37,504 nt of DNA. Source: a virus. Its lineage: Duplodnaviria > Heunggongvirae > Uroviricota > Caudoviricetes. Position numbers and translations under genes: made by a program. Each line of letters starts with the position of its first letter. Positions within the stretch are counted from its first letter, which is position 1. Shown in pieces: positions 1 to 25,260 of the stretch. The notes beneath the pieces are model-generated. The model worked only from the letters and a program-made list of their open reading frames with translations, was not told the DNA's origin and did not search any database. The stretch is from IMG/VR virus record IMGVR_UViG_649989947_000021; one strand, written 5' to 3'.

Positions 1-171
1 CTGACCGTACTCAACGTCCATACTGTAACGCCCGGCTTCATCCGGATTTTCTGAGGCCAGCGTGTTCACCACCACAGTGGTACTGTTACGTTTTGCTTTC
101 AGCTGGATTGTGCAGTTCTGTACCGGTTTTCCTGTGCCGTCTTTCAGTACACCTGAAATCTTTACTGCCAT
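1..171 (-). CDS. stf: side tail fiber protein Stf, N-terminal part (continues beyond window start)
   Basis: Minus-strand ORF with ATG at 171..169 translating MAVKISGVLKDGTGKPVQNCTIQLKAKRNSTTVVVNTLASENPDEAGRYSMDVEYGQ, matching the lambda Stf N-terminus as I recall it; sits after lom as in lambda; truncated by the window edge. Confidence 0.8.
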   Translation of the reverse strand, partial: MAVKISGVLKDGTGKPVQNCTIQLKAKRNSTTVVVNTLASENPDEAGRYSMDVEYGQ

Positions 172-182
172 ATTCACCCCAC

Positions 183-210
183 AAAAAAGCCCGCCTGAAC
201 CGGCGGGCTG
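183..210 (-). terminator. rho-independent terminator between lom and stf
   Basis: Minus-strand hairpin AGCCCGCC-GGTTCA-GGCGGGCT followed by TTTTTTGTG. Confidence 0.55.
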
Positions 211-231
211 TCATAACACTGTGTTACCTGG

Positions 232-834
232 CTAATCAGAATTTATAACCGACACCCACGATGAAACCGTCAGTGCGCCAGTCACCACTGCCGGAGCCTT
301 CATAAGCAATATCAATGGCCACGGATTCGGTCGGGTTAAACTGCACGCCAGCCCCCACGCCAGAGACGTGTTGCTGTGGCGACCGTCATCACTTCCGGTC
401 AGCACATCGTGCGTTTTCCCCTTGTTGTCAGTTACGCGGAGATAATCCCCGGAGAAAGTCGACACACGGCTGTAAGCCACACCCGCCATCGCATACGCGC
501 TGAACCATTCATTCACGCGTACAGACGGCCCCGCCATCACGCTGAACCAGCGGTTACGCACGGAATCTTCATGCCAGCGGGTATCGCTGTAACGGGTAAG
601 CTGGCGATTCTTGTCTCCTGCATAGCTGAATGACGTCACCAGCCCCAGCGTGTCCGTAAATTCATAACGGTATTTCACGTTAATCCCGTTAAGATTATCG
701 CTACCGGGAGCGTTCGTCCGGGCATGAAGATACCCCGCGCTCAGTGTGGACTGATGTTCAGACGCCCATGCAGGCGCACCGGATACGGACAGACAGATGG
801 CTGCGGACAAAATGGCTGCACAAACTTTACGCAT
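232..834 (-). CDS. lom: Lom outer membrane protein (Ail/Lom family)
   Basis: 200-aa ORF with signal peptide [24 protein letters not shown] and beta-barrel-like sequence; located immediately after J as in lambda; GAGG ribosome-binding site upstream. Confidence 0.9.
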
Positions 835-856
835 AATTACCTCTCGCTTTTCTGCA

Positions 857-882
857 ATAAAAAAGGCACCATTTCTGGTGCC
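857..882 (-). terminator. rho-independent terminator after J (tJ-like)
   Basis: Minus-strand hairpin GGCACC-AGAAAT-GGTGCC followed by TTTTTTATT, between J stop (904) and lom start (834). Confidence 0.55.
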
Positions 883-903
883 CTTATATGGGTTATAACA
901 ATT

Positions 904-2664
904 TCAACGAATACTGATGCCGGAAGCGGCTTTTTTGGTCACAATCACCGTACAGTCGGTGATATTGCCTGCCCACTGATTGCCTTTCTGGAAAATCTTA
1001 AACTCCAGAGTGACGCTACCACCACCACTAGGCATATCAATAACTGCACTGTAACTACCGGGAATGGCCCCTTTAGTTTCTCTGGATGCGATTAATACAC
1101 CGTTTTTGCGAACTTCAAAACCATAACCCGTGTAACTTGTACCTCCCGGGTTATTACCACTTCCCGGATAGCTATACGCTATTCCGTTAAAGATAATGGG
1201 CGGAATAATGATTTGACGGTCAAAGTTATGATCATCGCTGATGGTGACTGTAACCGTCCCGTTTGGTGTTTCCGTGTTACCCCATGTACCAGCCTGTTTC
1301 GGAAATGATTTGGATACAGCTTTAACGAAGTCACCTCTGACCTGAGTCGCCTCCAGCATGCCCTTAATCGTACAGTTTTCATTTACCGTGACATTGTTGA
1401 GCGTCCCGGCGTTCGCATTCACACTGCCACTGATATCCGCATTTTTAGCGGTCAGCTTTCCGTCTGATGTCAGGGAAAATACCGGAGGACTGCCACCGCT
1501 GGTAATTGTGGGAGCAATAAGGGTCTTAATCAGCGCTTCATTGATAAACGTCTGTCCCCCCTGCGTGACCAGTGCTGGAGTGGTGTTACCGTTCTCCGGA
1601 TTAATGAACGCAATCCTGTCTGCCGCCAGCAGCACCTGACTCTGCATACCGTCAGGGGTATTCTCAATACCGGCACCGATACCCGCAATGTAAAGGCGAC
1701 CATCCTGCATCTGCTGCAGTTTCACGGCCCACATACTGTTCAGGTTATTACTGGTGTCTGTCTGAACCTTTTGTATCTGCTGGATTGTTGCTTCCTGCTC
1801 GCCCAGTTTTTTGTCTGTCGTCGAGATGATTTCACTGCTTTTTTCATCCACATACTGACGAACCTGCGCAATCTGGCGTGCATTCTCCTCATTACTCTGA
1901 CTGACCGTTTGCGTGAGTTCGCTACTGACGTTGTCCACTTTCTGACTCACCTGGGATATGGCCAGTGACTGCTCATCATTTTTTTTAGCAACCAGCTGCG
2001 TGAGGCTGTTTTCAGTTTCCCCGATTTTTTGGGTCACCCCGGCAATATCACTCTCCAGTCGCTGATTGACCTCATCCTCCAGTTGCTCAACTTCACTGCG
2101 CAATGCAGAGGCATTAATACGATCATTCAGCTCCTGCCCCAGCAGGGTGCTGTTTATTTTCCCTTCAAAAAAATTGAGATACTCTTCAGGATTATTACCC
2201 GGCTGGCCGACAGCCTCCACGAATGCCGATTTGCCAACGGTATTCACACTGCGAACATAAAAGTAATAATCATGGCCCGGCTTAATATTCTGGCCGGAGG
2301 CTACCCAGTACAGTGCCGTACCAAGATAGCGGGCAGATTTGTCCACCTGTGAGACATCTGAAATCTTCGTTTCAGAAAACCAGAATTCAAACTGTACCGT
2401 CGGATCATAAACCGCAAGATGCGGCGTGGCGGTTATCTGAAAATAGCCCGGCGTCAGCTCAATCTGTGACGGCGCTGCCGGTGCGGCAATCCGGAACGAT
2501 ACCGACGCCGGATCGCCCTGCTGTCCCCGGGCATTTACCGCCCGGACTGTCAGCGTGTAACGCCCCAACGCCAGCTGCCTGAAGCGGTATGTGGTTTCCG
2601 TCGTCCGGGCCGTGCTGACCAGCCGCTCACTGCCGTCATCCGCTGCCACGGTCAGGCGAAGCAT
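904..2664 (-). CDS. J: host specificity (central tail fiber) protein J, C-terminal segment downstream of a frameshift
   Basis: 586-aa ORF beginning [17 protein letters not shown], which is the continuation of lambda J after ...[11 protein letters not shown]; FN3-like region, then a long Q/E-rich coiled-coil-like stretch and a C-terminal domain that does not match lambda J as I recall it. Confidence 0.85.
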
Positions 2665-4619
2665 AAAGCTCCCCCCTTCACCACCTTCGGCGTGTCCCAG
2701 CGCGCCAGCACCTGGTATTCCCCGCTGTCTGCGGTGACTTCTGCGGTCAGGTGCTGCACTGCTGGCGGCGTGACACCGTTCACCGTGCCACTCTGTTCGC
2801 CGTCAAAGTGCGCCCCGTTATCCACGATGGCCTCTTTTTCCGGCACATGCTGCACGGCGGTGATGGCATACGTGCCGTCGTCGTTCTCACGGATACTCAC
2901 GCAGCGGAACAGTCGCTGGCGCAGCGTCGGCAGCTTCAGCCCCCATACGCTGTATTCAGCAACACCGTCAGGAACACGGCTCACTTTTACCTTCACGCCG
3001 TCGGTGACGGACTGAACCTCCACGCTGACCGGATTGCCACTTCCGTCAACCAGGCTTATCAGCGTGGTACCGGAGGATGGCAGCGTGATTTCACGGTCGA
3101 GCGTCAGCGTCCGGGTCTGGCTGTTCACCGCCAGCACGCGCCCGCCGGTGCTGATACCGGCATAGTCATCATCGCAGATTTCAATGACATCGCCCGGTAC
3201 ATGGCGAAGCCCTTCAGCACCCACGCTGAAGTCCACGGTCTGCGTTTCCAGCAGTTCTGTTTTAATCAGCCACAGCCCGGCGCGGTGTGCCTGCCCCCGA
3301 CTGGTACAGCCAAAGGCATCCATCTTCGTGACGTTACGACCGTAACGGGCAATGGCCTGCGTGTCCTCCACAAGCTCTGTTGCCGTCTCCCAGCCGTTGT
3401 TCGGGTCAATCCAGTTCACCTCAACGGCATTATGGCGGTCCTTCAGGGCGCTGAAGCTGTAGCGGAACGGCGCGCCATCATCCGGCATCACCACATTACT
3501 GCGGTTATAGGTCCACACCTTATCCGACGGTCGGTCCTGCACGAACGTCAGCGTTTGCCCGTTCCATACCGGCATACAGCGCATCGCCGAGCAGAAATCA
3601 CTGAGCACATCCCACGCCTTGCGCTGTGTGGTCAGGTACGCATTACAGGTGATGCGCGGCTCCGTGCCGCCAAAGCCGTCCGGCACTGACTGGTCGCAGT
3701 ACTGGCCGATGACATACAGCGCCCATTTATCCACATCCGCCGCACCAAGACGTTTCCCCATGCCGTAGCGCGGATGGGTAAGCATATCCCACAGACACCA
3801 GGCCATGTTGTTGCTGTATGCCGGTTTTAACGTTCCGTCCCAGATACCGCTGTATTGTCGCGTCTGCGGGTTATAGTTCGACGGCACCTGCAGAATGCGC
3901 CCGCGAAGATGATAATTACGGCTCACCTGCTGGCTGCCGAACTGCTCCGAATCCACCTGTACGCCGACCAGTGCCGTGTTCGGGTAGCACTGTTTCACAT
4001 CGATGATTTCGGTGTATGACGACCAGAGCGTTTTGTTCTGCAGCTGGTCTGTGGTGCTGTCCGGCGTCATCCTGCGCATCCGGATATTGAACGGGCGCGG
4101 CGGCAGGTTACCCACCACCACCGATGCCAGATACTGTGAGGTGGTTTTGCCTTTAATGGTGATGTCTTTTTCCGTCACCCAGCCACCGTTACGTTGTATC
4201 TGAACCAGCAGGCGGACTTCCGACGGATTCCTGTCCCCCTTTGAGGTGGTTTCCACCAGTGCCTGCACACCGAAGGTAAAACGCAGTCGGTCAATGTTTG
4301 CCGACGTGATGGTCCGGGTGATCGGCGTGTCGTATTTCACTTCCGTACCCAGCACCGTCTCGGAGCCGGAGGATTCAAATCCCTCCGGCGGAGTCTGCTC
4401 CTGCTCACCAGCCCGGAACACCACCGTGACACCGGAGATATTGGTATTCCCCTCACTGTCCAGCACCGGCGTACTGTTCAGCAGCACGCTTTTTAATCCA
4501 TCCACCGGACCGTCAATCGGCCCTTCGCTGATGGCATCAATCACACTCAGCAGTTGCGTGGACTTCAGGTTGTCCTTCGCTTCGCGCGGGGTATGCCCCT
4601 TACTGCTTCCTTTGCCCAT
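2652..4619 (-). CDS. J: host specificity protein J, N-terminal segment upstream of a frameshift
   Basis: 655-aa [46 protein letters not shown]..., near-identical to the lambda J N-terminus by recall; ends ...[17 protein letters not shown] where lambda continues in-frame. Confidence 0.9.
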
Positions 4620-4679
4620 TCGTCATGCTCCATAAACGACAAAACCGCCCGGAGGCGGTTTCACATGAAATATTTTGCA

Positions 4680-5327
4680 TCAGCGGCCAATCACCACAAC
4701 CTGACCACCGTCCCCTTCATCTGCCGTGCTGATCTCCTGAGAAACCACACGAGACCCCACGCGCATTTCACCGTACAGAACAGGCAGAACATTGCCCTGG
4801 GCAACCATGTTATCCAGTGATGAGAAATAGGTGTTCTGCTTACCGTTATCCGTGCTGGTCGCTGTGGGCGTCCGGGCTTTCGGTGCCAGCATCTGGGCCA
4901 CACCACCCAGGATCATACTGGCCCCTGCCGCATACATGCCCGATACAGCCGCGGCACCCAGCCAGCCCACAGGGTTCCACCATGCCACCGCAATCAGCGC
5001 CGCCCCCAGCACCACCTGAAACACACCGCCACTTTTAGCTCCCGCCAGATGCGGCACGATGTGGATCACGGCACCATTTGCCAGCGGCTCATTAAGACGG
5101 GCAGATAATTCGGTTTCACCTGCATCACGCCCGGCAATGCGCACCTGATACCAGCCGTCATTCAGTTTCTGACGAAACGCCGGGAGCTGTGTGGACAACG
5201 CCCGGATGGCTTCAGCCCCCGTTTTTACACGAAGGTCGATGCGGCGGCCAAATCGTTGTAAATCCCCGTAAAGGCAGATGCGTGCCATGCCCGGTGACGC
5301 CAGAGGGAGTGTGTGCGTCGCTGCCAT
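4680..5327 (-). CDS. I: tail assembly protein I
   Basis: 215-aa ORF MAATHTLPLASPGMARICLYGDLQRFGRRIDLRV...; overlaps the K 3' end by about 100 nt, as lambda K/I do. Confidence 0.85.
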   Translation of the reverse strand: MAATHTLPLASPGMARICLYGDLQRFGRRIDLRVKTGAEAIRALSTQLPAFRQKLNDGWYQVRIAGRDAGETELSARLNEPLANGAVIHIVPHLAGAKSGGVFQVVLGAALIAVAWWNPVGWLGAAAVSGMYAAGASMILGGVAQMLAPKARTPTATSTDNGKQNTYFSSLDNMVAQGNVLPVLYGEMRVGSRVVSQEISTADEGDGGQVVVIGR

Positions 5328-5968
5328 TTGTCGGTATACCTCTCTCGTTTGCTCAGTTGTTCAGGAATATGGTGCAACAGCTCACCGTCGCCGCAGTAAA
5401 TGGCGGCATGATTCGGCACCGATGAACCAAAACAGCACAGCAGCACATCGCCCGGCTGCGCCGCTGACAACGGCACCTGATACAGCCCTGTGGCCTCCAG
5501 ATTATCCAGATAGAGATTCTGGCCGTTACACCACCAGTCATCCTCACGATGAAAGTCCGGCATCTCAATCCCCGCCAGATGATAAGCATCCCGGAACAGC
5601 GTGTAACAGTCCGTCACCCCGTGCTCAAAGCGCCGCCCGGTAAGATGCGGCACACAGCGGAATTTATGAATCTCACCCCGGCAGACCAGCCACCAAGGCA
5701 AATCGCTCTGCACCTGCAGCCGCCTGTCAGCCTCACTCAGCCAGGGCAGACCACCGGGGTGGCTGTGGACCAGCGCCACAATCTCACCCTGCATCTCTGC
5801 CCGCAGCCAGTCCTCCGGCGACATCCGGAAATACGCCTCCGGCTCACCGGAGATATTCACGCAGGGAAAATATCTTTCCCCTTCCGGCGTTCTCACCACG
5901 AAGCCGCACGACTCCGCTGGCGCACATCGCCGGGCGTGCGCCAGAATCTCTGATTCTGTCTGTGTCAT
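5225..5968 (-). CDS. K: tail assembly protein K (MPN/JAMM plus NlpC/P60 domains)
   Basis: ORF with HSHPGG JAMM-like motif and a C-terminal Cys/His NlpC/P60-like region; start chosen at ATG 5968 (MTQTESEIL...), 5 nt after the L stop; a shorter start is possible. Confidence 0.8.
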   Translation of the reverse strand: MTQTESEILAHARRCAPAESCGFVVRTPEGERYFPCVNISGEPEAYFRMSPEDWLRAEMQGEIVALVHSHPGGLPWLSEADRRLQVQSDLPWWLVCRGEIHKFRCVPHLTGRRFEHGVTDCYTLFRDAYHLAGIEMPDFHREDDWWCNGQNLYLDNLEATGLYQVPLSAAQPGDVLLCCFGSSVPNHAAIYCGDGELLHHIPEQLSKRERYTDKWQRRTHSLWRHRAWHASAFTGIYNDLAAASTFV

Positions 5969-5972
5969 GGGA

Positions 5973-6671
5973 TTACTGCGAAAGTTTGTTAATGGAAAGG
6001 AAGCCGCCAAAGTTGCCGACGTTATTGCGAAACTTACAGCCGCTCAGGCATTTGCTGCATTTATCCTTCGTGATATCGGACGTCGGCTGGTCATATTCAT
6101 CCGCGACAGCCGGACCGTGATAACCACACTCATCACCGCGATAGGTCCAGGTGCAGGTGTTGGCCAGCATGATACGCCCCGGAAAAACAGCACCATCCGT
6201 TTCCGTCGGTGTGGACAACACAAAGGAGGCACTGACCGCACTCAGTTCGCTGCACTGCTCGATGCGCCAGCGGCTGATCACCTCCTGCTCCGGATCGGCG
6301 TCGCTGTTTCCGTTGACGAAGTTCACCGCATCCAGAAAACGGGCGTAAACCTTACGCCTGACCACCGTTCCGCCGACCAGACTCTGCAGGTCTTCCGCCA
6401 TCCCCGTGACCATGCCGTGCAGGTTAGAAACCGTCAGTGTCGGACGGGCAGCACTGCCCTTGCCGTTCAGTTCAAATCCTGTCCCCTGAATGGGGTATGC
6501 CTGATACTGCCGCCCCTGCCAGGTAACCGGCTCACCTTTTTCGTTCTGCTCATTACAGAAAAAATAACGTTCACCACCGACCTCTGTCAGATCGATTTCC
6601 CAGAGCACCACCTGGGCTGACTGAGTGAGGCGTGTCGTCTCATGATGTGTTTCCTGTGGAATATCCTGCAT
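5973..6671 (-). CDS. L: minor tail protein L
   Basis: 232-aa ORF MQDIPQETHHETTRLTQSAQVVLWEIDLTEVGGERYFFCNEQ..., lambda L-like by recall. Confidence 0.9.
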   Translation of the reverse strand: MQDIPQETHHETTRLTQSAQVVLWEIDLTEVGGERYFFCNEQNEKGEPVTWQGRQYQAYPIQGTGFELNGKGSAARPTLTVSNLHGMVTGMAEDLQSLVGGTVVRRKVYARFLDAVNFVNGNSDADPEQEVISRWRIEQCSELSAVSASFVLSTPTETDGAVFPGRIMLANTCTWTYRGDECGYHGPAVADEYDQPTSDITKDKCSKCLSGCKFRNNVGNFGGFLSINKLSQ

Positions 6672-6680
6672 CAGAGCCTC

Positions 6681-7011
6681 CTATGCCACGACCTGTTCAA
6701 AATCTGCCGTTATGGTTACCCACAGCGCCCCCACGCTTGCCGACCATTTACGACAAACCACCCTAATCGGTTTCCAGTCATAAGGTGGCGTCCACTGAAA
6801 TGCGCGGACGCCACCGTGCCGTTCCAGAAAGGCTTTTTAAAGATGGGTGTTCACATTTACGAACACGTATCGTCACGCTGTAAGTCGACAACTGGTTATT
6901 CAGTCCCGCCGCACGACGCTGTTCATAACCATCGCCCAGCTTCACTGTCACCACTTTCGGCTCTGATACCACATTCATATCCGGGCGCACTTTCCAGTGA
7001 AACGTCTCCAT
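6681..7011 (-). pseudogene. M: minor tail protein M, interrupted by a +1 frameshift in an A5/T5 run
   Basis: N-terminal frame (6778..7011, METFHWKVRPDMNVV...TYSVTIRV) is M-like, then diverges; the M-like C-terminus (KAFLERHGGVRAFQWTPPYDWKPIRVVCRKWSA...ADFEQVVA, stop at 6683..6681) lies in the adjacent frame; the junction is at the T5 run 6834..6838. Confidence 0.8.
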
Positions 7012-10000
7012 TACCGATATGCTCCACTTAACCGACCACCATCACGGGCCTGCTGTTGCATAAAGTCCGCTGCCGCTTTTATCCCGAGGTCATAAACCGC
7101 CTTCAGGGCAGCCGGACCTATCTGCCCGTTCGTGCCATCGTTATTGATCTCGATGTTGTACTGCGGGGAAAACATCGCCATACCTGAACCCCCAATATCC
7201 GCCACCCCCCCCAGCTTACCGTCAGCACCACGACGCAATGGCAGAATGGCTTCAGGTCCCGCTTCCCCCATCACACCCGCGCCTTTTGCAAAAGCAAAAA
7301 ACGTCGGACGGTTAACCACCGTGCCACTGTAGCGACTCAAATCAGCCGACTGATAAACACCGCCATCAGCATTGGCTACAAAATCAAAAGGCAGCGCGGA
7401 AGCAATGCCTTTTACCGCTTTCATTAAAGCTATCTGAGCCATGATTCTGGACATATCTGACAGCACAGAAGAAGTAAAAGATTTGAAATTGAGTTTGCCT
7501 GTAGTACAGAATGTCGCCAGCCAGTCACTCATGCTACTGAACGCAGACGTGAACAACTGTTCCACTGTCCAGGCTGTGTTATCCGCATTCTCAGTGACAT
7601 TCTGGAGTGCACGCAGGACTCCGTTTTTCCAGTTACCCTGAGCAATTTCAAGCTGTTGCCAGTAACGGCGATTCTCATTCAGTTGTCGGTTCAGGCTCTC
7701 CGTCAGCGCCTGCTCGGCCTTTCTGTAGTCATCCGTGTTATATGTCCCTTTCTGCTCACTATCCCGCCTCAACTGCTCCAGCTGTTGCTGGTATTTCTGA
7801 CGAAGACTCAGTTGTACCTGATATCGCTGCCGCTGCTGATCACCCATACCCACCGTGGCGATATCCAGATTATGTTGTTGACGCTGAGCACGCTCTTCTT
7901 CAGCCAGTTGACTGGTCAGCTGAATTGTTTTTTTCTTCAGCTCGTTGAGTGCCGTCTGTTTCTGAAGCTCCTGCTGTTTTACATCCAGCAGCGTCAGTGC
8001 CTGAATCAGTTCATCTTTACGGGCCAGCACACTCTTTTCATCTGCCGTCAGTTTTTTCCCGTCCAGGTCGCTGATGCGCTGCTGCAGAGCCAGAAGCTGT
8101 TTATGCGCTTCTGTCATCCTTTCCGTGGCAATGCCTGCTGACTGTCTGGCAGCAGCAATCTGTCCTTCCACCTGTGCCTGTTGCTGACTGTACTGCAGCA
8201 ATAACCGGGTGGCCTCATCATTACGGGTTTCGCGTGTTTTTTTCTTACCGGATGCCAGGGCTTTCTCGTAACGTTCATTTTCACGTTGTATCGCCGCATC
8301 CCTGACAGTCTGATCGGCGTACTGCATGGCATTAATACGCGCAATTTCACGCTGATGTCGTGCTGCTTCCGTTTCATTCATCCGGTTCAGTGCAGCATTT
8401 TCAGCATTACGGCGTTTCTGTTGCTCCTGATAATTCCGCTCTGCCTGCTCTTTTGCATCCTGCAAATCCTTCTGGCGTTTTTTTTCCTGAAGCTCGTTAA
8501 GACGCTGCTGATCGTACTCAACCTGAGAAGATGATGCCGTCCAGGGGAGTCTTTTCGCCCGCGACACTTTCTCCTGTAAAGCGGAAATCTGTTCATCCAG
8601 CGAGTCTTCACGACCAATATTCATGGCCGCATCCCAGAAACGACTCCATAAATCAGACAGATACTTCAGCGTACTGCCCAGCGCATTGAGGTTATTATCA
8701 ATATCCGCAGTACGCCGACCGGTTTCCTCTGCCAGTGCAGACATGGCTATCCGTGCCGCATCACTGGACCGCCCCTGTTCCCCAAGGACGCGTATCTGCT
8801 CAAGCTGAGTGGCAGTAAGAAAATGCAGCTCATTGTCCAGAGCCTTCGCGGCATTTACAGGATCATCCTTCAGCCGCTTAAACTGACTTATGGTATCGCT
8901 GACCGACTGGCCAACCGATCGCTCCATCTGTGCGGCAGCTCTCGCCACCATACCGATATCGTTTCCACGAAATGCACCACTCCCCACCACCTGAGCCAGC
9001 GCACCGGCTGCAGCATGTTGCGTGATACCATTCCCGGAAATAGCACGACTGAGCGTCCACAGCTGCCCGGCAGTGACTCCGGCATAATGCCCCGTCAGCG
9101 ACAGCTGGCGGTTAAATTCTTCCCCCTCCTTCTGACCGTCATACCAGGCTTTACCCAGACCATAGACAGCTGCGGCAATACCGCCAATAACCCCGCCCAG
9201 CATCATGCCTTTCGGTGACATCAGTGTGTCTATCCATCCGGCACGGTTAGCCAGCGTTATCCCGGATCCCCTCAGCGCCCCTAAATTGCCGCGGGCCAGT
9301 TCACCTATCAGAACGCCTATCTCCTGGCGGGCCGCTGCACTTTTCAGACCCAGCGAATGCGTGGCTTTTCCTGCCTGCTCCATTTTGCGGATATACACTT
9401 CTGCAGCACTGCTTACCCCCAGCTGGGCAGCCTTAGCACGAAGCAACTCAGAAGATGAAAGATTCTGGCGGGTTGCCTGCTCTTTAAGCTGACGGATAAA
9501 CGCCACTTTCTGTCGGGTACCCTCTTCCTCAGCCTGTGTAAGAACACGGGTTTTCGCCGTAACCTCAGAAATCAGCGCCAGATAATCCTGCTGACCAATC
9601 CCGCCACTGTTTCTGGCCTGTCGGATCTGCTGCTGAATACGCTGTAATTCCTGCAGCCCCGCACTGGCCTGTTTCACACTGTCAATCTGACGATAAAACG
9701 CAGCAGCCGCTTTATCCTGAGCCTCCGCCAGAGCCATGGCCTGCGCCTGTTCCTCGCGCATTTTCTGGCTCAGCGCCTCCATGCGCTGGCGGGTTTTCTC
9801 CACCTCGCGGGCCATGCGTTCATGAGCCTGTGCGTTCTTCTCCACCGTCTGCGCATGGACGGATGCGGCTGTTGCAGCCGAAGAAGCCGCCTGCGTTGTC
9901 TGCCGGGCGGCCTGAGTCTGACGCTCCATAAAACGCTGCATACGGGCAGAAGACCGTTCTGCATCGCTGGCTGCACCATTCAGAAGGTTTTTGATACGGG

Positions 10001-10067
10001 GGATTTCATTTTTAAACTCTGCCGCATCAATCCCCAAATCAATGACCAGGTTGGCTATCTGGTCCAT
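7011..10067 (-). CDS. H: tail tape measure protein H
   Basis: Approximately 1018-aa coiled-coil-rich ORF whose C-terminus (...NNDGTNGQIGPAALKAVYDLGIKAAADFMQQQARDGG...) matches lambda H by recall; start set at ATG 10067 (MDQIANLVIDLGID) with GGAGG 8 nt upstream; the ORF track start at 10097 is TTG. Confidence 0.9.
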   Translation of the reverse strand: MDQIANLVIDLGIDAAEFKNEIPRIKNLLNGAASDAERSSARMQRFMERQTQAARQTTQAASSAATAASVHAQTVEKNAQAHERMAREVEKTRQRMEALSQKMREEQAQAMALAEAQDKAAAAFYRQIDSVKQASAGLQELQRIQQQIRQARNSGGIGQQDYLALISEVTAKTRVLTQAEEEGTRQKVAFIRQLKEQATRQNLSSSELLRAKAAQLGVSSAAEVYIRKMEQAGKATHSLGLKSAAARQEIGVLIGELARGNLGALRGSGITLANRAGWIDTLMSPKGMMLGGVIGGIAAAVYGLGKAWYDGQKEGEEFNRQLSLTGHYAGVTAGQLWTLSRAISGNGITQHAAAGALAQVVGSGAFRGNDIGMVARAAAQMERSVGQSVSDTISQFKRLKDDPVNAAKALDNELHFLTATQLEQIRVLGEQGRSSDAARIAMSALAEETGRRTADIDNNLNALGSTLKYLSDLWSRFWDAAMNIGREDSLDEQISALQEKVSRAKRLPWTASSSQVEYDQQRLNELQEKKRQKDLQDAKEQAERNYQEQQKRRNAENAALNRMNETEAARHQREIARINAMQYADQTVRDAAIQRENERYEKALASGKKKTRETRNDEATRLLLQYSQQQAQVEGQIAAARQSAGIATERMTEAHKQLLALQQRISDLDGKKLTADEKSVLARKDELIQALTLLDVKQQELQKQTALNELKKKTIQLTSQLAEEERAQRQQHNLDIATVGMGDQQRQRYQVQLSLRQKYQQQLEQLRRDSEQKGTYNTDDYRKAEQALTESLNRQLNENRRYWQQLEIAQGNWKNGVLRALQNVTENADNTAWTVEQLFTSAFSSMSDWLATFCTTGKLNFKSFTSSVLSDMSRIMAQIALMKAVKGIASALPFDFVANADGGVYQSADLSRYSGTVVNRPTFFAFAKGAGVMGEAGPEAILPLRRGADGKLGGVADIGGSGMAMFSPQYNIEINNDGTNGQIGPAALKAVYDLGIKAAADFMQQQARDGGRLSGAYR

Positions 10068-10389
10068 AACGCACACCTCCGGAAATACCTTCCCCAAGAT
10101 GCATCAGTTCTTCGTCCGTTCGCTCCGGTATCCCGTTCTCTTCCGGTAAAAGGCTGAAATCAGCCACCGCAGCATCACTGCTGCCGGACACCATTCTCAC
10201 GATCAATGCCTTCAGCGAGGCAAACTGCGCATCCATCCACACATCACTGAAGCTCTGCATCCGGAAATAATCGCCCCACTCACCAAGCTCAGTGGCCGAC
10301 ATTTCCGACAGCATCCGCCGCCAGTCTGCCCGCCGGAACTCCCGGGCAAGCCGCATGACAAACTGCATTTCCCGCGTCAGGACTTTTCC
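10039..10389 (-). CDS. T: T-frame part of the G-T tail assembly chaperone, expressed by -1 frameshift from G
   Basis: ORF in the -1 frame relative to G, open only from 10401 downward, overlapping the G 3' end and the H start; same arrangement as lambda G/G-T. Confidence 0.7.
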   Translation of the reverse strand, partial: GKVLTREMQFVMRLAREFRRADWRRMLSEMSATELGEWGDYFRMQSFSDVWMDAQFASLKALIVRMVSGSSDAAVADFSLLPEENGIPERTDEELMHLGEGISGGVRYGPDSQPGH

Positions 10390-10766
10390 GGCGTCAGCGC
10401 CTCATGCTCATCATCCCCGGCATTATCAATGGTCCCCATACCGCTCAGCGACAGAACCATCTCCGCCCCCGCACCCAGGGCATCATACGACCATGTTGTA
10501 ATAACGGATGCGCAAAGCGTCTCTACATCCTTAGACTGATCCGCATTCCACTGTGAGCGGGAAACCAGCCAGGCATTGATATCCATCCCCATCCGCAGAA
10601 AAGCAATCTGTCGTTCAGCCTCCGGCAGTTCTCCCTCTTCGGCATCAAACTTTGCCGTTCGCTGCTGAACAAACGCCAGATATTCAATTCTCTGCAGCCC
10701 GGACAGCTCACTGAGCACCACGGACTGCTTTTCATAATTAAACGTGCCCTGTTTCAGAAACATCAT
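10377..10766 (-). CDS. G: tail assembly chaperone G
   Basis: ORF ...MMFLKQGTFNYEKQSVVLSELSGLQRIEYLAFVQQ... ending EALTPEKS; start at ATG 10766 with GGTGGAG upstream (ORF track start at 10805 is TTG and overlaps the terminator). Confidence 0.85.
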   Translation of the reverse strand: MMFLKQGTFNYEKQSVVLSELSGLQRIEYLAFVQQRTAKFDAEEGELPEAERQIAFLRMGMDINAWLVSRSQWNADQSKDVETLCASVITTWSYDALGAGAEMVLSLSGMGTIDNAGDDEHEALTPEKS

Positions 10767-10776
10767 GTTCTCCACC

Positions 10777-10803
10777 TGAAAAAAAGCCCCGGATAACCGG
10801 GGC
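10777..10803 (-). terminator. hairpin plus U-run between V and G (attenuator or terminator)
   Basis: Minus strand GCCCCGG-TTAT-CCGGGGC followed by TTTTTTT, immediately upstream of the G ribosome-binding site. Confidence 0.5.
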
Positions 10804-10823
10804 AAATGATGAGTATCGTCCTG

Positions 10824-11567
10824 TTAACCTGCGGCGCTGACAGCCACCGCAGCCACTGCCACAAAATCGCCGTCAGAAGTCATGCCCACAATGCTGACAC
10901 TGCCCTGCTTCACGCCTTTCACCGTGGCCACAAGCCCGTTCAGGGTCACCGTGGCAGTCTGTGGATCTGTCGAATGCACACTGATCGCTTTGTCACTGGC
11001 TCCGTCAGGTTTTACTGTAAAGGTCAGCGTGGTGGTTGCTCCCACTTTTACACTGGCAGATGCCGGTGCCACCGTCAGCCCGGTAACGCCCACAGTTTCA
11101 GTGCCCTCCTCTGCCAGATACGGACGCCCCACACCGCTGATTTTCACTGTGCGGGTCATCACGTCTTTTGAGGCAATGGTTTTACCCAGTGAGCTCAGCC
11201 AGCCACGGAAAACATCAACAGTGCCGTTGGGATATTTGATACGAAACGCGCAGACTTCACCGGAGTCGAACAACTGAACCAGTTTTTTCTGCCCGCTGTC
11301 ACCCGGACGCCAGGCCAGCGTCGCCGAAGTATCACCAACGGATTTCTGCCCCTGGGTTGTCGTTTTCCAGTCTGCATCTTCATCATCGAGATAAGTGTCA
11401 TCTTCTGCATCAGCGGTCATTTCGCCAGGTTGCAGATCCTTCACCATCGCAAGACGCAGCCAGTCAGTGTCCGACAAAGGGTTCGCAAATGCGTCGCCGT
11501 TGCCGGTATACATCCAGAACGTCGTTCCCGCACCTTTCGTTTTTGCCAGTGGATTTGGTGTGGTCAT
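10824..11567 (-). CDS. V: major tail protein V with C-terminal Ig-like domain
   Basis: MTTPNPLAKTKGAGTTFWMYTGNGDAFANPLSDTDW... is lambda V-like; AAGGAGG ribosome-binding site before ATG 11567; C-terminal Big_2-like segment. Confidence 0.9.
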   Translation of the reverse strand: MTTPNPLAKTKGAGTTFWMYTGNGDAFANPLSDTDWLRLAMVKDLQPGEMTADAEDDTYLDDEDADWKTTTQGQKSVGDTSATLAWRPGDSGQKKLVQLFDSGEVCAFRIKYPNGTVDVFRGWLSSLGKTIASKDVMTRTVKISGVGRPYLAEEGTETVGVTGLTVAPASASVKVGATTTLTFTVKPDGASDKAISVHSTDPQTATVTLNGLVATVKGVKQGSVSIVGMTSDGDFVAVAAVAVSAAG

Positions 11568-11577
11568 TACCACCTCC

Positions 11578-11979
11578 TTAATTCGTGTACGTGATCTGGT
11601 ACGTGATTTCCGCCATCGCCCAGGTGGCCATCTCATTATCACGTTGATAGTTAAAACCGAGTGGGATCAGGGTGTCGATGAGTCCGGAAAGTGCCGGTAC
11701 ATCATTCAGGGCCGGGAAAATGGTGCTCTCCATCCACATATCCAGCTCTGAATCCGGTGCTTGTGCCCGGATGAAGACAGCAATATGCAGAACAGCCTGC
11801 CAGTCATCTTCATCCGTCATTTTTCCGGTGTACTGAGCATCACTCAGCCACACCGACACGGCAGGCAGTTCCTGCGCATCAACAAATGCCGGAAGCCCGT
11901 CAAAAAACGTGGCGCTGTCTCCACACTGTTCCCGAAGGCGTGCCAGTACGACCTGGCGGATTTGTGTATGTCGGTTCAT
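11578..11979 (-). CDS. U: tail terminator protein U
   Basis: MNRHTQIRQVVLARLREQCGDSATFFDG..., lambda U-like; ATGA overlap with the Z stop. Confidence 0.85.
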   Translation of the reverse strand: MNRHTQIRQVVLARLREQCGDSATFFDGLPAFVDAQELPAVSVWLSDAQYTGKMTDEDDWQAVLHIAVFIRAQAPDSELDMWMESTIFPALNDVPALSGLIDTLIPLGFNYQRDNEMATWAMAEITYQITYTN

Positions 11980-12554
11980 CGGGTCAGCCATAACCTCAGT
12001 TGTTGTTTCAGTGCATAACCCAACTGTTTCGGCATTTCCGCAGCAATGATGCGGTCGCGGGCATCTTCAAATGCCTGTGTCAGCGGTCCGGACAACGGGA
12101 TTTTCACCACATCAATGGGGTAACGATTTTTGCCATCAATACGCCGCATCACATGCCAGCGACCATTCGCCAGTTGCTGAATAAACGCATCCCGGAAAAG
12201 ATATTTACCCACCTTCAGCACACTGCCACGGTACTGCAGTTTTCCACCACGCCGGGCCAGTCTGACCCGGGCTGTCCCCAGCTTAATGGCGGGCAGATTG
12301 CCCCGGTTGACGCGGATCCTGGCCGTCATTTTTCCTGACGGACTGGCTTTAAACACCCGGACACGCTGACGTACCAGTTTCAGGGGTATCCCTTTCACCT
12401 GGTTATCTCCCGCAACGGTATTCCCGGCAACCTGCCGGGTGGCAACCGAGACCGCTTTCTGTGCCACACGGTTTATCGCCCATGCGCTGGCCTGTGGCAC
12501 CATACGGGTATCAAGGCTGTTCAGATTGCGGATGGCATTCTCAAGCCCCTTCAT
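11976..12554 (-). CDS. Z: tail completion protein Z
   Basis: 192-aa ORF, same length and position as lambda Z. Confidence 0.8.
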   Translation of the reverse strand: MKGLENAIRNLNSLDTRMVPQASAWAINRVAQKAVSVATRQVAGNTVAGDNQVKGIPLKLVRQRVRVFKASPSGKMTARIRVNRGNLPAIKLGTARVRLARRGGKLQYRGSVLKVGKYLFRDAFIQQLANGRWHVMRRIDGKNRYPIDVVKIPLSGPLTQAFEDARDRIIAAEMPKQLGYALKQQLRLWLTR

Positions 12555-12565
12555 CCCACACCTCT

Positions 12566-12841
12566 TTACTCAATAAAGATCATTGGCTTACCGTTAAAGC
12601 GTTCATGCCGTGTGACCGTCCAATGTTGTCCGTCATAAACAACGCGATCCCCGCGCCGTGGGCGGTATCCCAAAGAAAACACCACCAGAGAGACAGCAGG
12701 TCCGGACAGAGCATTCAGCTCTGCCAGTGTTTCGCCCGGGATCACAGCCATATCGACATCATTAATCGAGGCTGTCTTTCCCATCTTTCTGACCGTGATC
12801 GCATCCATACGCGCTGCCAGCCGAGAAAAGGGATCAGACAT
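12566..12841 (-). CDS. head-tail joining protein (FII-like)
   Basis: 91-aa ORF located between the head module and Z; assignment is mainly by position and size. Confidence 0.5.
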   Translation of the reverse strand: MSDPFSRLAARMDAITVRKMGKTASINDVDMAVIPGETLAELNALSGPAVSLVVFSLGYRPRRGDRVVYDGQHWTVTRHERFNGKPMIFIE

Positions 12842-13157
12842 TGAGTTTTACCGGCACTTCTTCTGCACTGGTTCCGGCATCTGCCCAGACAACCCCGACC
12901 AGCGGATCAGAGCCGCTGTTAGTCAGCTGAACTTTTCCGGACTTCAGATAAACCTTCTTACCCGTTTTCATGTCATCCGTTTTCAGCTTAGGCAGGATAA
13001 ACACACCTTCGGTCATGCCGTCGCCTGTTTCACCCTGTGGAATATCGGTCAGCGCCACCGCAAAAACATCACCCACCTGCACCAGATCTCCGCTGCTGAT
13101 GGCTGCACTGGCAACAATCGCCACCGTTTTTCCTTCTTCTACAAAATTCTTTGCCAT
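12834..13157 (-). CDS. small capsid-associated protein (possible head decoration or stabilisation protein)
   Basis: ORF MAKNFVEEGKTVAIVASAAISSGDLVQVGDVF... with GGAG 7 nt upstream of ATG 13157; immediately follows the capsid gene; family assignment uncertain. Confidence 0.45.
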   Translation of the reverse strand: MAKNFVEEGKTVAIVASAAISSGDLVQVGDVFAVALTDIPQGETGDGMTEGVFILPKLKTDDMKTGKKVYLKSGKVQLTNSGSDPLVGVVWADAGTSAEEVPVKLNV

Positions 13158-13243
13158 AACTGTCTCCGCACAGCCCCGTTCAGGGGCTGATTTCAGGTAC
13201 AAAAAAAGCCCTTACGGGCCATCAGAGTTGTTGTCTGCGACGT

Positions 13244-15202
13244 TTACGCCGTACATTTCACCAGACCGCGGTGATCAACTGGCGCGACACCGGCGTCAAT
13301 ACGCACTTTCGTTGTCACGCCATCCACACTGAAGCCCTCCATCTGATCAATATATGGCGTATCCACACCGTTGAGATAAGCCACTTCAATCGTATCGGAG
13401 CCTTTGGACGCAGCCAGGTAGAAGGTGGTCTGGCTGTTATCATCAAGACGAGGCTCTGCAATAACGGTCGCAAAATCTTTCACCGGGTTAATAATACCGG
13501 CGTTAATGTCAGCCCCCTTGACACTTGAGGAGCGAATGACCTGGTTAGCAACAGACTCCATCGCCGTCGGTACCAGTACGAACGCAGGACGAATATTCAG
13601 ATGACGCTCCCCCTCTTTCTGAACGCGCATCAACTGGCGGGCTTTATCCAGCGATGCCACGTCCATTGCAGCGCTCTCCAGTACGTTTGCATGTTTCGCT
13701 TTATCGAACAGACTTACATTATCTGTGGAGATTTTCGGGTTAGACGTCAGAATGGCATAAACCAGATCGGCAATAGTGGATTTCGCCGCACGGCCCAGTT
13801 TCATCGGGACATCGGTCAGCATATTCAGATCATCATTGATAATGGCCTGACGGGTGATACTGAACAGCTCGCCATAGGTCGCCAGTGCAATAGTGGCCTG
13901 TTTATCTCCGGTGGTGACGTATTTATATTCCGCCCCTTCACGCACCTGACGCAGAGCACTGAAGCCCCCCATACCCACACGATGGGCAATTTTAAAATCA
14001 GACAACTGACCTTTCCGCGTCCACTGTTCATAGGTTTCAGGGGCATCTTCCCAGCCCTGCAGAATGGCTTTGTTCGCAACATCCAGCAGAATATTACCGA
14101 AGTCAGACGTACTGTGTGTGAACGCCGCACCGACCATCTGCATCGGGTTATAACTGGAAACCCCAATACCCCGTTCAGTCAGTGACATACGGGCATATTC
14201 ACGCAGGGTCATCCCGTTGTAGACATTATCACGTTCGGTTTTTTCAAATCCGGCACGCGCCATCAGCGCCTGGCGGATCCCGTCCCCCACAAAATTACCG
14301 TTACCGGCATAAATATGAGCCGGGGTATTTTTATTGGATGGCGTGGACTCGCGCCCCATCTCGTTCAACAACTTTTCGCGGGCCTGCTCCAGCGAACATT
14401 CAGGATCGGCAAGACACTGAGCCTGCAGCGTCTGATAACGCCCGCCAAACATGGCAAACAGATCATTAATACCGTTTACACGCGCTTTTTGCTCTGCCAG
14501 TACCTGCGCACGGATACTGTTTTCATCCACCACGGGTGCTGCTGCCTGCACTGGCGTCCGGGAGGCTGCAGGTTCATCATCCTGTACGCATGGAGCACTG
14601 TTGCGTGGCGGAGTAATCATGTTTCGAATGGATTCCGGCATCTTTTTAAATTCCTCTGTACGTTTTGACTGAATACATGCCATTGCCTTAACGGCTGGCG
14701 TTACCTGATCAGCAAATCCCTGTGCCAGACATTCGGCACCGGACATCCAGGTCTCATCCGCCAGCATGGCAGCAATTTCATCGGTGGTTTTCCCGGTTTT
14801 CTGTGCATAAGCGGGTAACAGAACCGCCTCAACCTTATCGAGCAGGTCGGCATAGGTGCGCATGTCCTCCGCATCACCGCCCGTAAAGCCAAATGGTTTA
14901 TGAATCATCATGAAGGTGTTTTCCGGCATAATGACCGGGTTTCCCACCATCGCAATGACCGACGCCATTGACGCCGCCACACCGTCGACATAAACGGTAA
15001 TGGACGCACCATGTGTTTTCAGCGCATTAAAAATGGCGATGCCTTCAAAGACATCGCCACCCGGTGAATTAATATGGAGATTAATGTGGGTGATATCGCC
15101 CAGTGCATTCAGATCACTGATAAACTGCTTCGCTGTAACACCCCAGAAACCAATCTCGTCATAAATATAAATATCCGCGTCACTCTGGTGACCAGCCTGC
15201 AT
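13244..15202 (-). CDS. prohead protease (ClpP/S49-like) - scaffold - major capsid protein fusion
   Basis: Long ORF: N-terminal ...ADIYIYDEIGFWGVTAKQFISDL...HINSPGGDVFEGIAIFNAL...ASMASVIAM is ClpP-like; Ala/Gln-rich linker; C-terminal half is capsid-like; start set at ATG 15202, just after the portal stop. Confidence 0.8.
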   Translation of the reverse strand: MQAGHQSDADIYIYDEIGFWGVTAKQFISDLNALGDITHINLHINSPGGDVFEGIAIFNALKTHGASITVYVDGVAASMASVIAMVGNPVIMPENTFMMIHKPFGFTGGDAEDMRTYADLLDKVEAVLLPAYAQKTGKTTDEIAAMLADETWMSGAECLAQGFADQVTPAVKAMACIQSKRTEEFKKMPESIRNMITPPRNSAPCVQDDEPAASRTPVQAAAPVVDENSIRAQVLAEQKARVNGINDLFAMFGGRYQTLQAQCLADPECSLEQAREKLLNEMGRESTPSNKNTPAHIYAGNGNFVGDGIRQALMARAGFEKTERDNVYNGMTLREYARMSLTERGIGVSSYNPMQMVGAAFTHSTSDFGNILLDVANKAILQGWEDAPETYEQWTRKGQLSDFKIAHRVGMGGFSALRQVREGAEYKYVTTGDKQATIALATYGELFSITRQAIINDDLNMLTDVPMKLGRAAKSTIADLVYAILTSNPKISTDNVSLFDKAKHANVLESAAMDVASLDKARQLMRVQKEGERHLNIRPAFVLVPTAMESVANQVIRSSSVKGADINAGIINPVKDFATVIAEPRLDDNSQTTFYLAASKGSDTIEVAYLNGVDTPYIDQMEGFSVDGVTTKVRIDAGVAPVDHRGLVKCTA

Positions 15203-22560: not shown

Positions 22561-23889
22561 CTGAGAGATCCCCTCATAATTTCCCCAAAGCGTAACCATG
22601 TGTGAATAAATTTTGAGCTAGTAGGGTTGCAGCCACGAGTAAGTCTTCCCTTGTTATTGTGTAGCCAGAATGCCGCAAAACTTCCATGCCTAAGCGAACT
22701 GTTGAGAGTACGTTTCGATTTCTGACTGTGTTAGCCTGGAAGTGCTTGTCCCAACCTTGTTTCTGAGCATGAACGCCCGCAAGCCAACATGTTAGTTGAA
22801 GCATCAGGGCGATTAGCAGCATGATATCAAAACGCTCTGAGCTGCTCGTTCGGCTATGGCGTAGGCCTAGTCCGTAGGCAGGACTTTTCAAGTCTCGGAA
22901 GGTTTCTTCAATCTGCATTCGCTTCGAATAGATATTAACAAGTTGTTTGGGTGTTCGAATTTCAACAGGTAAGTTAGTTGCTAGAACCCATGGCTCCTTT
23001 GCCGACGCTGAGTAGATTTTAGGTGACGGGTGGTGACAATGAGTCCGTGTCGAGCGCTGATTTTTTCGGCCTTTAGAGCGAGATTTATACAATAGAATTT
23101 GGCATGAGATTGGATTGCTTTTAGTCAGCCTCTTATAGCCTAAAGTCTTTGAGTGACTAGATGACATATCATGTAAGTTGCTGATAGGTTTCCAGTTTTC
23201 CGCTCCTAGGTCTGCATATTGTACTTTTCCTCTTACTCGACTTAACCAGTACCAACCCAGCTTCTCAACGGATTTATACCATGGCACTTTAAAGCCAGCA
23301 TCACTGACAATGAGCGGTGTGGTGTTACTCGGTAGAATGCTCGCAAGGTCGGCTAGAAATTGGTCATGAGCTTTCTTTGAACATTGCTCTGAAAGCGGGA
23401 ACGCTTTCTCATAAAGAGTAACAGAACGACCGTGTAGTGCGACTGAAGCTCGCAATACCATAAGTCGTTTTTGCTCACGAATATCAGACCAGTCAACAAG
23501 TACAATGGGCATCGTATTGCCCGAACAGATAAAGCTAGCATGCCAACGGTATACAGCGAGTCGCTCTTTGTGGAGGTGACGATTACCTAACAATCGGTCG
23601 ATTCGTTTGATGTTATGTTTTGTTCTCGCTTTGGTTGGCAGGTTACGGCCAAGTTCGGTAAGAGTGAGAGTTTTACAGTCAAGTAATGCGTGGCAAGCCA
23701 ACGTTAAGCTGTTGAGTCGTTTTAAGTGTAATTCGGGGCAGAATTGGTAAAGAGAGTCGTGTAAAATATCGAGTTCGCACATCTTGTTGTCTGATTATTG
23801 ATTTTTCGCGAAACCATTTGATCATATGACAAGATGTGTATCCACCTTAACTTAATGATTTTTACCAAAATCATTAGGGGATTCATCAG
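22561..23889 (-). mobile_element. IS10 insertion sequence (IS4 family), 1329 bp
   Basis: Inside end CTGAGAGATCCCCTCATAATTTCCCC at 22561 and outside end (reverse complement) CTGATGAATCCCCTAATGATTTTGGTAAAAATCATTAAG ending at 23889; full 402-aa transposase; 9-bp flanking direct repeats. Confidence 0.95.
22574..23782 (-). CDS. tnp: IS10 transposase
   Basis: 402-aa ORF MCELDILHDSLYQFCPELHLKRLNSLTLACHALLDCKTLTLTELGRNLPTKARTKHNIKRIDRLLGN..., IS10 transposase by recall. Confidence 0.95.
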   Translation of the reverse strand: MCELDILHDSLYQFCPELHLKRLNSLTLACHALLDCKTLTLTELGRNLPTKARTKHNIKRIDRLLGNRHLHKERLAVYRWHASFICSGNTMPIVLVDWSDIREQKRLMVLRASVALHGRSVTLYEKAFPLSEQCSKKAHDQFLADLASILPSNTTPLIVSDAGFKVPWYKSVEKLGWYWLSRVRGKVQYADLGAENWKPISNLHDMSSSHSKTLGYKRLTKSNPISCQILLYKSRSKGRKNQRSTRTHCHHPSPKIYSASAKEPWVLATNLPVEIRTPKQLVNIYSKRMQIEETFRDLKSPAYGLGLRHSRTSSSERFDIMLLIALMLQLTCWLAGVHAQKQGWDKHFQANTVRNRNVLSTVRLGMEVLRHSGYTITREDLLVAATLLAQNLFTHGYALGKL

Positions 23890-24429: not shown

Positions 24430-25260
24430 TTAGTTCACATCATCACCAAAACTTGTCACATTCTGAAAAGCAATATCGGCCTTACGCTCTTCCTGGTGGC
24501 AAATGTCAACCAGAGAATCAAGAAACGGCTTCCAATTACGCGTCCATGTCCTGACATGTAGCTCGGGTATCCGCTTCAGTACAACTTTATATACTGTGGT
24601 AGACGGTACCGTGGAAAATCCATTTCCGCTGCAACGTTCGCAGATTTTAAACACTGGCACACCACGCTCGCTTGTGGCTTTGCGGTCCAGTACCTCTCCC
24701 TTTCCACCACAACGACACCTGGCACTTATCACTCCCTTCCCTTTACATACATCGCAAACGACTGGTACAACTTCCGTTACCTCTGTCCATTTCTCCCAGT
24801 CTGACGGTCGAACAGCACGGGAGCGACTGGCCCAATATGGTGCTTTACCCCATGGGTATGAAACCTTACGAATGACCTGCTTACGGGGTGTTAGTCCGGT
24901 ACCACTGCAACTATGGCATGTTACGCTGGTGTCCGCCGATCGGGAATACTCAGCAAAAGCAAACTGCGCCAGTACCAGCATACACCAGCCAAATTCACCA
25001 CCAGCTGCTTTACGCACATTCTTCGGTGCAATTTCCATCGCGTGACGCGCCAGCGCTTGGACTGCCATCTGCTCATCAGTCTTGCTGATACCGGCCTTCC
25101 CGAAGAAGGCCGCCAAGCCAAACCGTTCACGATTGCTGGTGGTACCAATAGCCGCCATAACATCGGTGCCTGTAAGACGTTCCGGAGAGGTTCCTTTCAC
25201 ATCGTCGCCGATATACATTCCCTGAGGACTGAAGTATTTTAGCGATGCCTCAAGCTTCAT
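24430..25260 (-). CDS. putative late antiterminator Q-like protein (zinc-binding Cys clusters)
   Basis: 276-aa ORF directly upstream of the lysis cassette in late orientation; Cys motifs CHSCSGTG, CDVCKGKG, CRCGGKG, CERCSGNG; assignment by position and Cys motifs, not verified. Confidence 0.5.
   Translation of the reverse strand: MKLEASLKYFSPQGMYIGDDVKGTSPERLTGTDVMAAIGTTSNRERFGLAAFFGKAGISKTDEQMAVQALARHAMEIAPKNVRKAAGGEFGWCMLVLAQFAFAEYSRSADTSVTCHSCSGTGLTPRKQVIRKVSYPWGKAPYWASRSRAVRPSDWEKWTEVTEVVPVVCDVCKGKGVISARCRCGGKGEVLDRKATSERGVPVFKICERCSGNGFSTVPSTTVYKVVLKRIPELHVRTWTRNWKPFLDSLVDICHQEERKADIAFQNVTSFGDDVN

Follow-up and report, generated by a model that had tools for sequence, protein, structure and literature searches.

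What kind of host-recognition protein is encoded by the distal part of the tail fiber gene in IMG/VR virus record IMGVR_UViG_649989947_000021, how far does it depart from that of lambda, and what would it bind? The record, 37,504 nt long and analyzed whole (here called the window), is a lambdoid prophage from the draft genome of an E. coli related to enteropathogenic E. coli (EPEC); its nt 1-8,664 match the start of NCBI draft contig ADUL01000068.1 with 100% identity. Positions 904-2100 (minus strand) are the distal half of the C-terminal open reading frame (ORF) of a lambda-type gene J, which encodes the tip attachment protein or central tail fiber. The reading preferred here, with good confidence, is that of a mosaic J in which a lambda hub is followed by a long repeat shaft and a phage 434-class tip, likely OmpC-binding, the whole having been split by a one-base deletion that reduced a run of seven G to six (G7 to G6).

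The gene is 3,716 nt long and is read as two minus-strand ORFs overlapping by 13 nt. The upstream one (2652..4619, 655 aa) carries FNIII-A_GpJ (PF24801, E=3.8e-41), the Phage-tail_3 hub (PF13550, E=9.6e-44), and the first 40 positions of the first immunoglobulin-like/fibronectin type III (Ig/FNIII) domain, and ends after the frameshift at a premature TGA (2652-2654). The downstream one (904..2664, 586 aa plus stop) starts at an internal ATG and includes the peptide quoted in a first-pass annotation of the locus; positions 904-2100 are its residues 189-586. It supplies the rest of the first Ig/FNIII domain (profile positions 45-104; Ig_J PF24421, ORF residues 2-62) and the second one (Ig_J_second PF24489, residues 64-166), together at 2167..2661 (-), and then the shaft, the beta-prism fiber (Phage_Tail_Tip PF09327), and the receptor-binding domain (Ig_GpJ_C PF12421). 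All four of these Pfam matches exceed the curated cut-offs. In a phmmer search of the PDB the 586-aa ORF matches the solved lambda gpJ chains (E=7.6e-173) in two blocks: ORF 1-185 against lambda J 653-837, and ORF 292-585 against lambda 843-1131. Residues numbered with a J below refer to the frame-repaired protein of 1,238 aa.

Alignment with MAFFT shows the gene to be a recombinational mosaic of known modules. The hub (J 1-647) is 99% identical to lambda J and the FNIII domains (J 648-815) are 83% identical, which, with the first phmmer block, upholds the first-pass observation that the protein tracks lambda as far as the residues FVEAVG. Within J 836-945 there are ~101 aa with no counterpart in lambda, 434, or 2B8, but 73% identical to the J of PhiR49_2. 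The central straight fiber, or beta-prism, at 1318..1734 (-) has its PF09327 match at ORF 293-421; identity to lambda is ~61% over J 946-1070, and its confidence is low in the monomer model, as expected for an intertwined trimer. The tip (J 1071-1238, the last 168 residues) is 93% identical to 434, 98% to 2B8, and 43% to lambda, with identity to 434 and 2B8 climbing to 93-98% from about J 1041; before about J 1040, the prism of 434 J is only ~62% identical. At the DNA level the same module is visible at 904..1515 (-): megablast aligns only query positions 1-612, at 98% nucleotide identity to 2B8, PhiR26_1, and Evi (and 97.4% to Stx2c phages), the similarity to the first three ending at about 1515. 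The GC content within J falls from 0.56-0.64 (2400-4600) to 0.45-0.52 (904-2400). This drop falls at the point where the near-identity to lambda ends.

The distal domain, the Ig-like receptor-binding domain of phage 434 class, occupies 907..1317 (-). It had been described as different from that of lambda, and in sequence it is: over the last 170 aa, tblastn gives 92.9% identity to 434 and 98.2% to phages Evi and 2B8, against 39.4% to lambda. A non-homologous replacement of the lambda domain might be read into the low identity to lambda (39-43% by the two methods), but it can be given almost no credence, being refuted by the match to essentially the whole PF12421 profile (E=1.9e-26, positions 1-134 of 135) and by the predicted fold; in addition, the alignment to lambda runs unbroken as far as the K-K-x-x-x-G-I-S motif at the C-terminus. 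When the last 180 residues were modeled with AlphaFold2 (predicted local distance difference test score, pLDDT, 80.9), the four best Foldseek matches in the PDB were the A8 gpJ chimera, closed (9wca) and open with OmpC (9wcb), and lambda gpJ, closed (8xck) and open with LamB (8xcj). TM-scores are 0.72-0.73 for all four, with probability 1.0 for the lambda matches. By profile and predicted fold alike, then, the domain shares the Ig-like gpJ receptor-binding family of lambda, as a diverged member: it is different as a sequence, but not as a domain.

Which receptor such a tip would use can be approached through its relatives. Replacing lambda J by the 434 gene switches the phage from LamB to OmpC, the receptor of 434 (PMC3509688), and the 434 host-range determinant confers use of OmpC in place of LamB (PMC3509688; PMC11101478). 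It is a reasonable inference from sequence that the window tip is a specificity allele other than that of lambda, with a receptor other than LamB. Since the tip is 93% identical to that of 434 J, and both 434 and lambda h434 use OmpC, OmpC is the best candidate, and an intact allele would likely use it. To this extent the different receptor specificity proposed in the first-pass annotation stands; as the gene is broken, however, that specificity belongs to its intact relatives.

The OmpC assignment, which rests on homology, has several points weighing against it. The tip differs from that of 434 at about 12 of 168 positions in the receptor-binding domain; in lambda and phi21 one substitution in J can be enough to alter receptor use, and a few mutations switch or broaden it; and sequence class and receptor are not related one-to-one, since A8 and 1A2, the tips that Brödel et al. 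(PMC11338833) engineered and that bind OmpC, belong to classes less than 50% identical to the 434 type (A8 is 45% identical to the window domain; 1A2 ends VMKKATAGITIS, like PhiR49_2). A 434-like tip whose intact form recognizes some other receptor, such as OmpF, LamB, or another porin, is nevertheless considered rather unlikely: the resemblance is to the very domain that defines the h434 (OmpC) host range, not to the LamB-binding domain of lambda, and the same tip class is very common in E. coli prophages, its DNA being present in 2,092 of 5,426 complete E. coli genomes (~39%), as well as in many Stx1a and Stx2c phages. The native receptor of phage 21 is LamB, not OmpC. The 434 genome announcement does not mention a receptor, and a 2026 receptor-prediction preprint covers GpJ of Drexlerviridae, not of lambdoid phages.

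Between the FNIII domains and the prism lies a shaft longer than that of lambda or 434. In lambda, the alpha-helical shaft is a three-helix bundle whose upper (809-840) and lower (841-861) parts refold differently on receptor binding (Ge and Wang, PMC11101478). It has 53 residues there; in the window the corresponding helical region (1735..2190, minus strand; J ~811-962) has ~150-154. The segment absent from lambda, 434, and 2B8 is ORF 186-291 (1792..2109, minus strand), identified as lacking a lambda counterpart because the phmmer alignment passes from lambda residue 837 directly to 843; MAFFT makes the net difference a 101-aa gap. The extra residues are thus placed at lambda 838-843, exactly at the junction of the upper and lower shaft helices. 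Their composition (E 13.6%, S 12.7%, Q 11.8%, no proline) agrees with the Q/E/S-rich insert of the first-pass annotation.

The same annotation had called the insert heptad-like, and this was not supported. Hydrophobic periodicity peaks at 3.65 residues, and the power at 3.667 is matched by none of 2,000 shuffles; at 3.5 it is 0.02, under the shuffle mean of 0.2, so that a canonical left-handed heptad coiled coil is rejected. Autocorrelation of BLOSUM similarity has peaks at lags of 29 (z=7.2), 58 (z=4.8), and 11 residues (z=3.4). Four consecutive 29-residue pseudo-repeats can be delimited at 1699..2046 (-), beginning at J859 (IAGV), J888 (ISQV), J917 (IAQV), and J946 (IQQI), the last of which runs into the conserved MWAVK at the start of the beta-prism. 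The stalk is an extension of the lambda shaft by 29-residue repeats (11+11+7, about eight turns; 29/8 = 3.625 residues per turn). Tandem Repeats Finder detected no DNA-level tandem repeats in window positions 900-2700; the copies are therefore old, and seen only at the protein level.

Structurally, AlphaFold2 predicts one long helix for J 811-962 (pLDDT ~65-88; helices at model positions 20-33 and 35-171). By extrapolation from lambda and the F2-type pyocins this shaft would be a trimeric coiled coil, in which the extra 101 residues would add ~15 nm of straight helix at 0.15 nm per residue; against this, the models are of monomers, and both the trimer and the added length are extrapolated. The insert searched alone with phmmer against the PDB matches only through its conserved flank, with no solved relative of the insert itself by sequence. 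The central fiber of the F2-type pyocin PyoF10 (PDB 25VF) is likewise lambda-J-like with a markedly extended three-stranded coiled-coil shaft, but its sequence resembles the window protein only weakly (E=3.2e-5, for the most part outside the insert); side fibers dock on it, it contains an insertion domain, and it is without a canonical C-terminal receptor-binding domain.

The pyocin does raise the question of whether the long shaft is a docking platform for side fibers or accessory proteins, and not a simple spacer. Its exceptionally long shaft bears three side-fiber trimers at a glycine kink, and the window shaft also has glycines, at J861, 867, and 940. However, phages 434 and 2B8, whose shafts have 65 residues, and E. 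coli E2348/69, whose shaft has 166, all carry one and the same Stf/Tfa gene pair (1,314 nt + 270 nt) after J; since the same side-fiber genes accompany short and long shafts, docking on the shaft is unlikely. In Ur-lambda, moreover, the collar made by the Stf N-terminus sits at the gpV-gpM junction and not on J, and no insertion domain is predicted in the helix of the monomer model. A docking role is accordingly regarded as very improbable.

Shaft length varies widely among relatives. Taken as the interval between GKSAF and MWAVK, and measured over 120 homologues from databases, 80 loci from IMG/VR, and a representative protein set, it has values of 65 (lambda, 434), 93, 137, 166 (window), 177, 202, 235, 246, 264, and 293 residues. 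Within the 137-293 family, alignment shows the differences to be tandem duplications or deletions of units of 11, 29, 36, and 58 residues, or about 3, 8, 10, and 16 helical turns. Shafts of three lengths (65, 93, and 166 residues) accompany the 434-type tip, and the 166-residue shaft is found with several tip classes, so shaft and tip assort independently. A search of 1.84 billion representative proteins returned mostly fragments and no new shaft class. An apparent class of 143 residues was rejected as an artifact of a duplicated prism start: the protein concerned (P0041, E. coli, 466 aa) has a 50-aa tandem duplication over the shaft end and the beginning of the beta-prism, which may be a real duplication or an assembly artifact. 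A distant homologue of 1,244 aa (P0255) has a 226-residue shaft that is not alignable in detail, and neither supports nor refutes preservation of helical phase.

DNA similar to the insert occurs in 744 of the 5,426 complete E. coli genomes (~14%). Of 50,697 phage records, by contrast, only those of PhiR49_2 and PhiR40_1 have it. The J proteins of these phages (XSB43110.1, 1,232 aa), and of many E. coli prophages, such as that of ATCC 25922 (WP_016265923.1), share the 166-residue shaft class, with 73% identity to the window over the insert, but have a tip of another class, 45% identical to that of the window and ending VMKKATAGITIS like the OmpC-binding 1A2 chimera. PhiR49_2 and PhiR40.1 belong to one phage collection. 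As PhiR40.1 forms plaques, with a related long shaft (73% identical over the shaft), long shafts are functional.

These observations allow a tentative suggestion, put forward as possible and with more doubt than confidence: the J shaft may be a modular length ruler built of 29-residue, eight-turn units, whose steps of 11, 29, 36, and 58 residues would keep the helical phase, and with it the way the tip is oriented with respect to the hub, while length varies independently of the tip. If so, shaft length would tune how far ahead of the hub the tip reaches, for example through O-antigen or capsule, and also the travel of the tail during shaft collapse. No description of phase-preserving shaft modularity was found in the searchable literature, in a search that is far from complete; a paper on Gifsy-1 has nothing on 434 or on fiber length.

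Whether the window itself encodes a working fiber is a separate question. A single uninterrupted J frame of about 1,130-1,240 codons is absent, its place being taken by the 655-aa and 586-aa ORFs. The cause is a homopolymer of six G at 2671..2676 (-), where intact alleles have seven; it lies upstream of the span described in the first-pass annotation, which missed it. A three-way alignment was made with the closest complete genomes, those of E. coli E2348/69 and strain A25: one G is missing from the window and from E2348/69, while A25 has G7 and an uninterrupted J of 1,238 aa (WP_201488479.1). The A25 allele is otherwise very close (97.5% nucleotide identity over the whole gene, one amino-acid difference in the C-terminal 500 aa), and an IMG/VR locus (L010) also has G7, with a protein 100% identical over the last 447 residues. 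The E2348/69 gene (E2348C_RS28990) is 99.2% identical at the nucleotide level over its whole length, has the G6 frameshift, and is labeled "frameshifted" (a pseudogene) in RefSeq; in four separate assemblies of E2348/69 the match is 3,715 nt long, as against 3,717 nt for the intact gene. G6 and an identical 586-aa ORF are also present in three further EPEC-related drafts, and the exact 586-aa ORF in four NCBI drafts. Because it recurs in the finished E2348/69 chromosome, in all four of these assemblies, and in the three further drafts, the deletion is a real lineage mutation, common to the window and E2348/69. It falls inside the beta-sandwich of the first Ig/FNIII domain, between profile positions 40 and 45 of 104.

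The window J is probably inactivated by this, or at least split, making it a pseudogene or split gene of the J family; a broken J implies that the specificity discussed above is that of intact relatives (A25, L010), and probably not that of a working fiber of this prophage. Some evidence runs the other way. The break is in a homopolymer, and another G run of the same draft, in lom, has also lost a base, a deletion that E2348/69 is without; since this second deletion is unique to the draft, some homopolymer error in the assembly is possible. The in-frame internal ATG at 2664 is preceded, at 4-5 nt, by the Shine-Dalgarno-like motif GGGGGGAG (region 2662-2685, minus strand), and the 586-aa fragment could thus be translated; the rest of that ORF is stop-free and, as noted, matches the intact L010 allele. 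J might then be functional, with a long-shaft, 434-type fiber being made, if the break were a sequencing artifact, or were bypassed by transcriptional or translational slippage on the G run, or if the two fragments reassembled. This is judged improbable in view of the recurrence of G6 in other assemblies, the RefSeq annotation, the position of the break within a beta-sandwich, and other decay: an insertion sequence (IS) transposase between Q and the late genes in the window, and in E2348/69 a further frameshift in J and another in the tape-measure gene.

Several observations bear on these points. The TGA of the upstream J ORF overlaps the start of the 586-aa ORF, so that reinitiation could give a free C-terminal fiber fragment; the Shine-Dalgarno-like motif and internal Met are also present in intact J alleles. 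The second frameshift in E2348/69 J (A8 to A7, gene nt 2635) is inside the shaft-coding region and absent from the window, whose J is by this measure one step of decay behind. In lom (232-834, minus strand), a 1-nt deletion at 352-356 leaves G5, compared with G6 in phage 434 and GGGGA in E2348/69 and A25; it puts the last 34 codons out of frame, limits the PHROG Lom match to profile positions 1-166 of 199, and may be a homopolymer sequencing error. The IS element encodes a 402-aa DDE_Tnp_1 transposase (22574-23782, minus strand; no PHROG match) and separates the Q antiterminator gene (24430-25260) from the genes for lysis and packaging, which is consistent with a decaying prophage.

Taken as a whole, the intact fiber would consist, in order, of a lambda-identical hub, two Ig/FNIII domains, a helical shaft ~100 residues longer than that of lambda, a beta-prism, and a 434-class Ig-like tip. 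For the tip, the most likely receptor would be the porin OmpC and not LamB, and binding would then trigger a lambda-style collapse of shaft and prism by which the tail tube opens; in the window, the deletion at 2671-2676 has probably inactivated J, or at least split it. Lambda gpJ (PDB 8IYK, 8K35, 8XCK, 8XCJ) has the same order of hub, FNIII-1, FNIII-2, helical shaft, beta-prism, and Ig-like tip, the same gene neighborhood, and presumably the same receptor-triggered opening mechanism; it differs in its short shaft, its prism and tip sequences, its use of LamB, and in coming from an intact gene. The J of phage 434 (UMO75362.1, OL657227.1), which shares the tip and is followed by a nearly identical lom-stf-tfa region, has 1,137 aa and a short, lambda-type shaft. 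The A8 gpJ chimera (PDB 9WCA; 9WCB with OmpC) has the same prism and tip fold, and its tip, which uses OmpC, comes naturally from an E. coli prophage, but its receptor-binding domain is only 45% identical to that of the window, and it was built on the short lambda shaft.

The surroundings of J are those expected of a lambdoid tail module. PHROG matches identify Lom, the tail-tip proteins I, K, and L, and a 1,028-aa tape-measure protein (TMP), as well as a portal, a large terminase, and an integrase among the neighboring genes; the gene order TMP-L-K-I-J-lom-stf is that of annotated relatives (lambda M was outside the scan). The tape-measure ORF (7011-10097, minus strand), whose E2348/69 counterpart is annotated as frameshifted, compares with 853 aa for lambda H, and a longer tail is predicted on this basis. 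The start of stf occupies 171 to 1 of the window. In close relatives, stf and tfa are followed by the type III effector genes NleG, NleB (SseK_NleB), NleC (Peptidase_M85), and NleD (Peptidase_M91) (positions 10194-13761 of locus L090, contig AIEV01000024.1); such cargo is not visible in the window because the contig end cuts it inside stf.

The window itself matters little. Its tip is the classical h434 type and its long-shaft class, if less frequent, is also widespread in E. coli genomes; RefSeq already labels the gene family gpJ, and the present copy is a pseudogene, in an EPEC prophage that carries effectors and is decaying. With tip class and gene family already known, the only detail that is possibly undescribed is the phase-preserving modular shaft. 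Exchange of J tips is used to retarget lambda-derived delivery particles (PMC11338833); a shaft that varies naturally and preserves phase would give a second, independent design parameter, the reach of the fiber. Such a shaft would also offer a natural test of the model in which shaft collapse opens the tail, as proposed for lambda (PMC11101478).

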